Source of the DNA: an uncultured delta proteobacterium
GTDB taxonomy: Bacteria; Myxococcota_A; Polyangia; Polyangiales; Houyiibacteriaceae
NCBI GenBank assembly: GCA_963768985.1
Contig: CAVYJZ010000009.1
Coordinates: 650,188 to 714,187, forward strand
Direction of reading: 5' to 3'
Length of the DNA: 64,000 bases
Below, in pieces: positions 19,554 to 21,340 of this stretch. Within the stretch, counting starts at the first letter, position 1, and every line of letters starts with the position of its first letter. Made by a program: the position numbers and the translations under genes. A model generated the notes under the pieces. It was not told where the DNA came from. It was given only the letters and a program-made list of their open reading frames with translations, and made no database searches.

Positions 19554-20672
19554 CTAGGATTCCGGCAAATCGATCGTTCTTCGACCCAACATGTTCATTC
19601 GGGTTCGGCGAATCGTTGCCGCCTCGACGACTCGGCCATCGTCGTACCGGAAGCGAAGTGCATCCTCGGGGCACTGCACGATGCACGCGCCGCACTGAAT
19701 ACAATCGTTGCTTCGCTTGATCTCGACCTTCCGTCGGTGACCATCCATGTGCAAGACGTTGCGGGGGCAAACCTGCACGCAAGCGGCAGCGCCAGTGCAA
19801 CGCTCTTCCACGAGATCGATGTGCGCCGCGTTGTGAAACGTATTGATGTAGCTGCCGTACCATGGCGTAGTCCCGGCGAGGTCGACCGACAGCACGCCCA
19901 TCGCGACGACGGACGTGGCGGCCGCAAACCATAGATGCGTGGGCGTCGCGGACCCGAGCGCAGCGAGCAGGCCCGCCCCGACGAGGAACCCAGCCGTCGC
20001 AAAGACGCCAAATGTCACCCATCGCTTTGCGCCCGTGACGCGGATCCAGGGGAGCACGGCGAACATGCCTCCAACGATCGACACGATCACTGCGACCAAG
20101 GAGGCCGCTAGTGCCCAACTGCCGACGCCCCAAGCCGACAAGGCTGCGATGACTAGCAGTGCCCATCCCCACATGAGGGCCATTTCCATGCGGTCCCGCA
20201 GAGGGAAGCGCGCGAACCGTTCCTCGGCAATTACGTGCTGACCTCGGTCCAAGAAAGCGGGGAGGTCCTCCATTTGCGCCGGCCCCCAGCGGGCCGACCA
20301 ACCCGCAATTTCCAAAATCTTTGCACGCTCTACACCGGTCGCACAGAGCTGAGGCAGGATGATCTCCCGATGATCGACTTGCTCGCCGATTCGCGAGGTG
20401 CGCAGCACCGAGATGACGTCGTGGTGCGTGAGATGTCCGCCGCCAGCTGCACACCAGACATTGATACCCTGACTGTTCGCGCACAACAGCCAAGCATCGC
20501 GGCCTTTGAGGACCTTCATGAGCCGTCGTACGGTCAGCGTGAAGTTGCCGGTGAGCAGGACGGGCGAATCGCGGCAGGGCTCTCCGATTCGGATGAGCCC
20601 TGTGGGCGCGCGATGCGGCAACATGCGAAGCATCGTGTCTCGCAACCAATTCGTGAAATCAATAAGCTTCAC
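19554..20672 (-). CDS. Fused HgcA-like corrinoid membrane protein / HgcB-like ferredoxin
   Basis: 372 aa. Corrinoid domain: PVLLTGNFTLTV, cap-helix motif GINVWCAAGGG, REIILPQLCATGV, WGPAQMEDLPAFL. These are followed by four hydrophobic helices. Ferredoxin module: CTGAAACVQVCP (degenerate) plus CIQCGACIVQCP (canonical). The GTG start overlaps the stop of the upstream methyltransferase gene. Confidence 0.75.
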   Translation of the reverse strand: MKLIDFTNWLRDTMLRMLPHRAPTGLIRIGEPCRDSPVLLTGNFTLTVRRLMKVLKGRDAWLLCANSQGINVWCAAGGGHLTHHDVISVLRTSRIGEQVDHREIILPQLCATGVERAKILEIAGWSARWGPAQMEDLPAFLDRGQHVIAEERFARFPLRDRMEMALMWGWALLVIAALSAWGVGSWALAASLVAVIVSIVGGMFAVLPWIRVTGAKRWVTFGVFATAGFLVGAGLLAALGSATPTHLWFAAATSVVAMGVLSVDLAGTTPWYGSYINTFHNAAHIDLVEERCTGAAACVQVCPRNVLHMDGHRRKVEIKRSNDCIQCGACIVQCPEDALRFRYDDGRVVEAATIRRTRMNMLGRRTIDLPES

Positions 20673-21340
20673 GGCACTGCCTCACCACGCATGGCATTCA
20701 CGATGACGAAAGTATTCCCCCAGAGGCGCGTCTCTTCAACGTGCTGGAAGCCGGCGTCCCGAATCTTGTCGGCCAGAAACTCGACCGGCTGTGTGCTCGT
20801 CTGAGTCAAGACGTAGGTGGCAATGCTCATGGGTAGCCGGCGAAGATAATACCAGGCGCGTTGCGCTTTCGAGGATGGCAGAGTCTCGTCGGCAATCACG
20901 AGATGCCCGGCCGGAACCAAGCGCGAACGAGCGATGTCGAGCGCGTAAGACTGCTCGTCCGCGGAGAGCTCGCTGAACACCAGGCACGATACGATCGAGT
21001 CGAAGGCCGCCTCGCCAAAGCGGTCCTGAACCTCGGCGATGCCCAGCTCGAGCCACTCGACGTCAGCCCCTCGATCGACCGGGGTCGCCTTCCGACGAGC
21101 GATCTCGAGCATCTCGGCGTTCGAGTCGATAGCGACCACATGCGCGCCTCTTGCCGCGCACGCGAGCGCCACACCACCGGTCCCGCAGCCGAGGTCGAGG
21201 ACACGCTTTCCTGGAGATGCCGCAAGAGTTGCGATCTGCTCATAAACGTTGCCGATGCGGCCTCGCGACAAGAGTCGAATGCCTCGGTCATAGCGTTCGG
21301 GGGCTGATTCCAGAAACTTCATCCAGACGAAGCTGCTCAT
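20669..21340 (-). CDS. Class I SAM-dependent methyltransferase
   Basis: 223 aa. Motif I VLDLGCGTGGVALACA, motif post-I VVAIDSNAEML, motif II-like IVSCLVFSEL. Confidence 0.85.
   Translation of the reverse strand: MSSFVWMKFLESAPERYDRGIRLLSRGRIGNVYEQIATLAASPGKRVLDLGCGTGGVALACAARGAHVVAIDSNAEMLEIARRKATPVDRGADVEWLELGIAEVQDRFGEAAFDSIVSCLVFSELSADEQSYALDIARSRLVPAGHLVIADETLPSSKAQRAWYYLRRLPMSIATYVLTQTSTQPVEFLADKIRDAGFQHVEETRLWGNTFVIVNAMRGEAVP

Follow-up and report, generated by a model that had tools for sequence, protein, structure and literature searches.

Analysis of a 64,000-nucleotide (nt) stretch of DNA from an uncultured delta proteobacterium (GenBank assembly GCA_963768985.1, contig CAVYJZ010000009.1, positions 650,188 to 714,187; hereafter, the window) revealed an ordinary, intact member of the curated cpaM/hgcAB-like gene pair, residing in a Polyangiales-type myxobacterium. 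The first gene of the pair encodes CpaM, a class I S-adenosylmethionine (SAM)-dependent methyltransferase, and the second encodes a membrane protein in which homologues of the corrinoid protein HgcA and of the ferredoxin HgcB are fused into one polypeptide. The conserved adjacency of the two genes, their translational coupling and the repeated fusion of their products constitute strong evidence that CpaM and the HgcAB-like protein act together. The reading that we favour, with confidence somewhat better than even, is that CpaM would be the SAM-binding loader of Co(I), that the ferredoxin domain would re-reduce the cobalt and that the methyl group would be delivered to an acceptor at the membrane.

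The gene pair and its family assignment

Both open reading frames (ORFs), which had been delineated in an initial annotation made by reading the window without database searches, were recovered intact at the same positions, on the reverse (-) strand, as are all features of the pair given below. The cpaM gene (20669..21340) starts with ATG and encodes 223 amino acids (aa), whereas hgcAB-like (19554..20672) starts with GTG and encodes 372 aa, with a corrinoid domain, four transmembrane (TM) helices and a two-cluster ferredoxin fused in this order. As can be read directly from the DNA, the GTG start codon of hgcAB-like lies over the TGA stop codon of cpaM in the tetranucleotide GTGA (20669..20672), an arrangement that amounts, by its sequence, to translational coupling of the two genes. 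A Shine–Dalgarno-like string, GGTGAGG (20680..20686), located 7 nt upstream of the GTG within the cpaM coding sequence, may function as the ribosome-binding element of hgcAB-like, and purine-rich strings occupy the equivalent position in most homologous loci. The GTG start is supported by the conservation of the N-terminal residues R11 and D12 across 22 homologues, the set from which residue conservation in the HgcAB-like protein was derived throughout (25 homologues were compared for CpaM and 120 close homologues for the first ferredoxin motif).

The 372-aa protein matched the NCBIfam model NF043039, 'HgcAB-like fusion protein', with 404.8 bits (cutoff 285; E = 4e-121; profile positions 3-350), which bears out its initial description as a fused HgcA-HgcB-like corrinoid/ferredoxin membrane protein. 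The 223-aa protein matched NF043040, 'corrinoid protein-associated methyltransferase CpaM' (a 'hypoth_equivalog'), with 277.3 bits (cutoff 180; E = 7e-83), the next best NCBIfam family scoring 47.8 bits. Given these E-values of the hidden Markov model searches, both assignments are far beyond chance. The HgcAB-like protein is 100% identical to an NCBI/ENA entry, a member of its 90% cluster (GenBank MGB8224753.1) is named 'HgcAB-like fusion protein [Polyangiales bacterium]', and a CpaM at 97% identity is already annotated by name. Because both families are curated in NCBIfam and the exact protein is public, the gene pair was already known; the window locus adds no new kind of system and nothing beyond what other members of the family display.

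In Pfam searches, the HgcAB-like protein matched the CdhD C-terminal corrinoid domain over residues 19-139 as well as Fer4 dicluster domains and, over residues 291-338, Fer4_7, and a single polypeptide carries, in order, a corrinoid domain of the type found in HgcA and in the corrinoid iron–sulfur protein (CFeSP), TM helices and a two-cluster ferredoxin. The corrinoid-binding, Rossmann-like domain (residues 19-143; 20244..20618), which has its homologues in HgcA and in the C-terminal domain of the large CFeSP subunit, contains the motifs PVLLTGNFTLTV (residues 37-48), GINVWCAAGGG in the cap helix (residues 69-79; 20436..20468), REIILPQLCATGV (residues 102-114) and WGP..EDLPAFL (residues 129-141). 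The four TM helices (residues 158-268; 19869..20201) were placed by AlphaFold2 at residues 158-183, 186-205, 217-239 and 244-268, with a predicted local distance difference test score (pLDDT) of 81-95 in a model that was built from a 22-sequence alignment and has a pLDDT of 72.9 as a whole. They match in number the four hydrophobic helices of the initial annotation, all the quoted motifs of which, along with the GTGA overlap, are present. Since four is an even number, the corrinoid and ferredoxin domains would lie on the same side of the membrane.

Linkage of CpaM and the HgcAB-like protein

A survey of one genome per GTDB species detected a relative of the HgcAB-like protein in 511 species, and linkage was counted in the best 80 loci. 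These come from Myxococcota, Alpha- and Gammaproteobacteria, Actinomycetota, Gemmatimonadota, Acidobacteriota, Deinococci, Planctomycetota, Thermoplasmata and Bathyarchaeia and include that of an isolate, Allgaiera indica DSM 24802; most carriers belong to aerobic soil lineages. In 78 of the loci cpaM directly precedes hgcAB-like on the same strand, and in a 79th the C-terminus of CpaM is found at the contig edge, so that the class I SAM methyltransferase initially noted upstream of the window gene has its counterpart in 79 of 80 loci. In 69 of the 78 loci the overlap of the start and stop codons is exactly 4 nt long (ATGA or GTGA), and the identities to the window copies correlate between CpaM and the HgcAB-like protein (r = 0.84). 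The adjacency extends to two distant subfamilies, represented by Bradyrhizobium sp. Ai1a-2 (locus L081; cpaM with 249.5 bits and a 4-nt overlap) and by a JGI metagenome contig (locus L082; cpaM with 201.5 bits).

In some members of the family the two genes have merged altogether. When 1.84 billion representatives were searched exhaustively with HMMER, 158 matched at E <= 1e-30, and among the best 150 of these (representatives of 50%-identity clusters), which were inspected, at least 15 are single polypeptides of the form CpaM-linker-HgcA(B)-like (e.g. P0292, P0305, P0310 and P0334); a further CpaM-HgcAB-like fusion, P0429, was found in a separate search. With 20-70 aa, the linkers are longer than would be expected if these fusions had arisen artificially from frameshifts at the 4-nt overlap.

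Several variations on this organization were observed. Fusions of CpaM with an HgcA-like protein of 536-602 aa (P0333, P0342, P0345, P0371, P0388 and P0392) are without any ferredoxin motif, and the family thus also exists as 'CpaM+HgcA', the ferredoxin presumably being encoded separately. An HgcAB-like class of 450-540 aa (P0303, P0322, P0340, P0351 and others) carries ~145-185 extra N-terminal residues, which read as added TM helices and gave no Pfam or NCBIfam match; its members have both full CxxCxxCxxxCP motifs, and some end in a Cys-rich tail (KCSCAYCK, SCACVYCN) recalling the C-terminal cysteines of HgcB. In L037, the sole locus of the 80 without cpaM upstream, repeat-rich, apparently non-coding DNA flanks hgcAB-like on both sides (1-930, 2100-3100), with recurring translated strings such as PLAEDPFGSSGSPLRWRRT, which suggests rearrangement by repeats. 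A profile of Lys-rich representatives aimed at the Pyrococcus furiosus subfamily returned members of different subfamilies (Bradyrhizobium, Kineosporia and Thermoanaerobaculia) and no Pyrococcus, and a search for plasmid carriage gave no PLSDB match at E <= 1e-20.

Relationship to HgcAB and CFeSP

Cys74 of the cap helix (codon 20451..20453) is invariant in the 22 homologues and is predicted to be the lower axial ligand of the cobalt. It aligns, by sequence, with residue 374 of CFeSP 2h9a_A, and when NVWCAAGGG is set against NVWCAAGKG of the true HgcA P0393, retrieved in the exhaustive search, the alignment has no gaps and Cys74 falls on the HgcA Cys, in keeping with the initial assignment of this residue. 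P0393, which as a control scored 332.7 bits on the true HgcA model NF040863, shares 38% identity with the window protein over 197 residues. The window protein itself scored 148.2 bits on NF040863 (cutoff 275), 54.1 bits on the true HgcB model NF040864 (cutoff 99) and 66.1 bits on NF003195, the model of the CFeSP large (gamma) subunit AcsC/CdhE (cutoff 306), of which only the last 125 profile residues were matched. Its sequence alignment to the corrinoid domains of CFeSP large subunits (2h9a_A, 4c1n_A and 4djd_C) spans residues 28-143, and no other part aligns to 2h9a/4djd. The top fold match was the integrative HgcAB model 9a0b_A (E = 9e-12), followed by CFeSP corrinoid domains at a root-mean-square deviation of ~3 Å over 132 residues; 9a0b is the sole HgcA entry in the fold library, and the sequence search retrieved no HgcA structure solved by experiment. 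On the profile scores (148 vs 66 bits), the nearest characterised relative of the corrinoid-TM part is HgcA and not CFeSP, as had been anticipated.

The protein as a whole is, judging from its profile scores and residues, not a true HgcA or HgcB, because both models scored below their cutoffs, Lys is replaced by Gly in the cap helix, one TM helix is missing and the key HgcB cysteines are absent. Specifically, the HgcA cap-helix consensus is N(V/I)WC(A/S)(A/G/S)GK (PMC10087281), whereas the window protein has NVWCAAGG; true HgcA has five TM helices (PMC11588087) as opposed to the four predicted here by AlphaFold2; and Cys73 and the C-terminal Cys pair of HgcB, where C73, C94 and C95 were reported to be crucial for methylation (PMC11588087), have no counterpart. 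The absence of the pair had been noted in the initial annotation, and indeed the last Cys of the protein is residue 334. In place of the Cys-rich HgcB tail there is a clade-specific, Cys-free basic tail (residues 344-372; 19557..19643) containing TIRRTRMNMLGRR, in which R355, T357, R358, N360, G363 and R365 are invariant and the pLDDT is <50. A His cluster straight after the cap helix (GGGH-LT-HH, residues 77-84; 20421..20444) is likewise clade-specific and invariant; true HgcA has GKGSFGT.

Compared with HgcAB of Pseudodesulfovibrio mercurii ND132 (NF040863 and NF040864), the shared features are a corrinoid domain of the CFeSP type, in which the Cys of the NVWC cap helix is aligned, followed by a membrane domain, and a two-cluster ferredoxin as electron supplier. 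Besides the number of TM helices and the missing HgcB cysteines, the differences are that HgcA and HgcB form one polypeptide here, that the cap helix ends in GGGH and not in GKG, and that the first cluster site has three Cys. The system formed by CFeSP and its methyltransferase MeTr in the Wood–Ljungdahl pathway (PDB 2h9a and 4djd) resembles the pair in its homologous corrinoid domain and in that a separate methyltransferase loads Co(I) and an Fe–S cluster re-reduces it. CFeSP, by contrast, is soluble and heterodimeric, includes a TIM-barrel domain and an N-terminal [4Fe-4S] cluster, has Thr at the position of Cys74 and receives its methyl group from methyltetrahydrofolate (methyl-THF) via the TIM-barrel MeTr, whereas here the donor would be SAM and the methyltransferase is of class I.

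These comparisons bear on whether the window protein could be a genuine mercury methylase, that is, an orthologue with fused HgcA and HgcB that makes methylmercury, CpaM being an accessory. HgcA is, after all, the closest characterised relative of its corrinoid-TM part (by profile score, identity and fold alike) and the cap-helix Cys is kept; moreover, the authors of the culture tests pointed out that the lack of methylmercury in P. furiosus does not disprove catalysis by the fused protein. Nevertheless, the failure of both the HgcA and the HgcB model, the GG where the cap-helix consensus ends in GK, the four instead of five TM helices and the absence of HgcB C73, C94 and C95 all speak against such a role, as do the culture tests of P. 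furiosus and Methanococcoides methylutens, which both carry fused HgcAB and did not methylate Hg (PMC4646819, PMC5893877), as the initial annotation had correctly stated. We consider a mercury methylase very improbable, and the missing HgcB thiols together with these culture results make Hg(II) an unlikely physiological substrate, although both test organisms fall into other subfamilies.

The ferredoxin domain

The second ferredoxin motif, C324-IQ-C327-GA-C330-IVQ-C334-P (CIQCGACIVQCP; residues 324-335; 19668..19703), is a canonical [4Fe-4S] motif, recognised by Pfam Fer4/Fer4_7, with all four Cys invariant in the 22 homologues. The first, C292-TG-A295-AA-C298-VQV-C302-P (CTGAAACVQVCP; residues 292-303; 19764..19799), is a three-Cys variant. 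The Ala in this motif had been reported in the initial annotation as standing where a Cys should be; it is indeed present but is not a defect, because none of 120 close homologues and none of the 80 loci has a Cys at this position, so that the three-Cys signature is clade-wide. Both full CxxCxxCxxxCP motifs are kept in more distant members, namely P0252, the triple fusions, the ~470-aa class that has additional TM helices at the N-terminus and the class of the Bradyrhizobium type. In ferredoxins, the pattern C-x2-X-x2-C...CP classically marks a [3Fe-4S] site. By analogy, the site of the first motif probably binds a [3Fe-4S] cluster through C292, C298 and C334, and the second cluster is predicted to be a [4Fe-4S] held by C324, C327, C330 and C302.

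This cluster composition is relevant to a different role for CpaM, that of a repair module that, together with the ferredoxin domain, would only rescue oxidised Co(II) by reductive SAM-dependent methylation in a MetH-like manner, the corrinoid cycling with some other methyl donor/acceptor pair. Reductive SAM-dependent reactivation has a precedent in the activation domain of MetH. Carriers are mostly aerobic soil lineages, in which Co(I) would often oxidise, and the higher potential that comes with the swap of a [4Fe-4S] for a three-Cys, probably [3Fe-4S], cluster fits a reduction that is pulled by methylation. However, no second methyltransferase or methyl-donor gene is conserved beside the pair, where only a TetR-family gene recurs upstream; the tight 1:1 coupling and the repeated fusion better suit a stoichiometric catalytic partner; and true HgcAB uses SAM catalytically. 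A repair function thus appears rather unlikely to us. At the level of chemistry, the activation domain of MetH and cobalamin-dependent SAM methylases such as TsrM are comparable to the pair in that SAM methylates cob(I)/(II)alamin, with reduction coupled to methylation. They differ in fold, neither the activation domain of MetH nor the radical-SAM domains being Rossmann methyltransferases of class I, and in that those enzymes are soluble; the CX3CX2C radical-SAM motif is absent from the pair.

CpaM and the proposed methyl relay

CpaM matched Pfam Methyltransf_25/11/12 and belongs to the UbiE/Coq5-like class I methyltransferases. Its AlphaFold2 model (pLDDT 85.3) has the Rossmann methyltransferase fold, with CysG(N-16), CmoA and Coq5 as the best folds, and Foldseek searches with the model matched methyltransferases bound to SAM or S-adenosylhomocysteine. 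In motif I, VLDLGCGTGG (residues 47-56; 21173..21202), the LDxGxGTG core is invariant (L48, D49, G51, G53, T54 and G55 in the 25 homologues); the same holds for D72, at which strand 2 ends, and by analogy with the class I fold motif I and D72 would bind SAM. The N-terminal 12 residues, MSSFVWMKFLES (21305..21340), include the invariant M1, S2, S3, M7, K8, L10, E11 and S12 and yet are unstructured in the monomer model (pLDDT <50 for residues 1-12), which suggests a docking or lid element. The structural matches are to generic class I methyltransferases and gave no hint of the substrate of CpaM. The possibility that it is an arsenite methyltransferase was considered and dropped, because its ArsM-type similarity is only generic (~40 bits).

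The methyl donor of purified HgcAB is SAM (Kd 33 uM, 0.15 s-1) and not methyl-THF, and the protein forms methyl-Co(III) with a Cys thiolate ligand, the HgcB clusters supplying the electrons (PMC11588087, published in 2024). Consequently, a scheme in which a methyl group travels from SAM to Co(I) and on to an acceptor represents the accepted chemistry of the family and not a departure from it. The contrast drawn in the initial annotation with a folate-linked supply of HgcAB is therefore outdated; what is distinct here is the class I methyltransferase partner coupled upstream, as HgcAB uses SAM without one. As for the remark that such a relay has not been characterised, we found no paper on CpaM, nor any mention of CpaM or of a methyltransferase partner of fused HgcAB in the literature searched, but the pairing itself has been recognised: both NCBIfam models exist, and CpaM is named for the association.

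For the pair, such a relay is plausible and could proceed as follows. CpaM and the HgcAB-like protein would be made in fixed proportion by virtue of translational coupling and would form a complex, in which the N-terminal domain of the latter would bind a cobamide with Cys74 as the lower axial thiolate ligand, as expected from homology to HgcA. The ferredoxin domain, on the cytoplasmic side, would reduce the cobalt to Co(I) by means of its probable [3Fe-4S] and [4Fe-4S] clusters. CpaM would then bind SAM and give its methyl group to Co(I), yielding methyl-Co(III), a step that true HgcAB performs alone, and the methyl group would finally be passed to an acceptor at the membrane surface.

Several points weigh against this scheme. 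The AlphaFold2 confidence is low for the ferredoxin domain and for the cap helix; the potential of a [3Fe-4S] cluster is normally too high for Co(I) formation, unless methylation pulls the reduction; and the assignment of CpaM as the loader follows from linkage and not from necessity, because true HgcAB uses SAM without a separate methyltransferase. In addition, the test organisms that do not methylate Hg, P. furiosus and M. methylutens, represent other subfamilies, neither a cobalamin riboswitch nor a B12 gene was detected in the vicinity of the pair, and the window locus is without the TetR gene present elsewhere.

A more specific proposal is that the pair is an oxygen-tolerant, SAM-driven membrane corrinoid methyltransferase of aerobic soil bacteria and archaea, acting on a metal(loid) (possibly including Hg, As, Sb, Se/Te and Sn) or on another electrophile, with CpaM and the [3Fe-4S] cluster letting Co(I) chemistry run outside strict anoxia. 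We regard this as quite unlikely, but, if true, it would reveal how methylated metal(loid)s can arise in oxic soils by a route that has so far gone unnoticed, and offer a clue to the ancestral function of HgcA.

Association with TetR-family regulators

The only conserved neighbour of the pair in the best 80 loci is the upstream TetR-family gene (PF00440). It precedes cpaM in 27 loci, in both bacteria and archaea, encodes a protein with a conserved C-terminal QHWGSxGxWPxL motif and, in 21 of these 27 loci, overlaps the start of cpaM by 4 nt. Examples are found in L014, L015, L034 and L064 as well as in 23 others, ~620 nt upstream of cpaM (L014:4734-5348). The presence of a dedicated TetR repressor at the head of the operon in about one third of carriers suggests small-molecule induction, and the ligand of this regulator could reveal the inducer or the substrate of the system. 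HgcAB, in contrast, is associated with ArsR-type regulators. The window encodes a TetR protein of its own (26890..27504), which was rejected as a member of the operon-linked family, with which it shares only the helix-turn-helix.

A TetR-controlled operon is typical of detoxification or catabolic genes, which would also be in keeping with a reductive corrinoid protein, involved, e.g. in halomethane dehalogenation via Co(I), with CpaM acting on another small molecule of the same pathway. According to a 2026 preprint, heterologous HgcAB dechlorinates CCl4 in addition to methylating Hg (bioRxiv 10.64898/2026.04.26.720869), but this work is not peer reviewed and concerns true HgcAB. Furthermore, the repeated fusion of CpaM to the N-terminus of the corrinoid domain and the near-universal coupling indicate that the two active sites cooperate, and the thiolate-ligated cap helix has so far been tied to methyl transfer. 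Accordingly, we find a reductive role improbable.

Fused HgcAB proteins in the literature and implications

Fused HgcAB 'paralogues' have been described in P. furiosus (AAL80853), M. methylutens (WP_048193041), Kosmotoga pacifica and Atribacteria. They share with the window protein the fusion of an HgcA-like to an HgcB-like part and fall under the same curated family concept. These carriers are anaerobes or thermophiles and were called rare, and fused HgcAB is used as an outgroup in hgcA trees, whereas the clade to which the window protein belongs occurs in 511 GTDB species, mostly of aerobic soil lineages, and is set apart by the three-Cys motif and the basic C-terminal tail. Thus, the picture of fused HgcAB in the literature, of a rare protein with one aerobic carrier, no longer matches the databases. 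The side branch of which the initial annotation spoke is a common one.

What members of the HgcA family natively do is a question of long standing, in which the fused branch has figured chiefly as a 'non-methylator' outgroup. The present analysis portrays it as a common branch that is almost always welded to a SAM methyltransferase, by a 4-nt overlap or by fusion, with one large clade carrying a three-Cys cluster site and one third of the operons having their own TetR. Now that true HgcAB has been shown to use SAM, the CpaM partner provides a concrete handle for biochemistry, and culturable carriers exist, namely A. indica DSM 24802, Bradyrhizobium sp. Ai1a-2 and Kineosporia sp. NBRC 101731. 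Should the acceptor in the proposed methyl relay turn out to be a toxic metal(loid), the system would matter for environmental chemistry; otherwise, its identification would still define the role of a widespread B12 enzyme.

Genomic surroundings

No Rfam family, cobalamin riboswitches included, was detected at E <= 1 in 15000..28000 of the window, and neither sigma-70-like promoters nor intrinsic terminators were found in 19000..22500. Comparison of the DNA upstream of cpaM in the eight closest loci showed no conservation beyond the start codon, the only inverted repeat lying inside the DUF4336 gene. There are no signs of a genomic island: the GC content is uniform (0.58-0.64) and no tRNA gene is present in the window. 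Downstream of hgcAB-like, no conserved gene was found beyond close relatives, small ORFs of at least 40 aa included.

Upstream of cpaM, on the same strand, three genes (21442..23863, (-)) are chained by 4-nt overlaps and encode a DUF35-type OB-fold/zinc-ribbon protein (23399..23863), a thiolase-like protein (22215..23402) and a DUF4336 protein (21442..22218); a gap of 101 nt separates this chain from cpaM. Kup, DUF4336 and thiolase/DUF35 were rejected as parts of the system because they are not conserved beside the pair, apart from one weak DUF4336 match in L032.

In the distant subfamilies, the pair is found in other company. In L081 (AUEZ01000113.1, 1..9266), it lies inside a region resembling a biosynthetic cluster, with two radical SAM genes (one of the HemN_C type), an alpha/beta hydrolase, an unannotated 292-aa protein whose gene overlaps the 3' end of hgcAB-like, an M20 peptidase, a ThiF-hydrolase fusion and an ATP-grasp enzyme. 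In L082 (JGI 3300037045, 788..9039), it is preceded by 2-oxoacid:ferredoxin oxidoreductase-like genes (TPP_enzyme_C+Fer4, POR) and followed by the gene of a 1305-aa radical SAM protein; judging from their predicted products, the oxidoreductase genes could provide a low-potential electron source for the corrinoid protein. Elsewhere in the window, inspection by eye suggested a crotonase-fold-like ORF (25986..26969, (-)) and an ORF resembling RRM-type RNA-binding proteins, with a Gly/Arg-rich tail (25448..26041, (-)).

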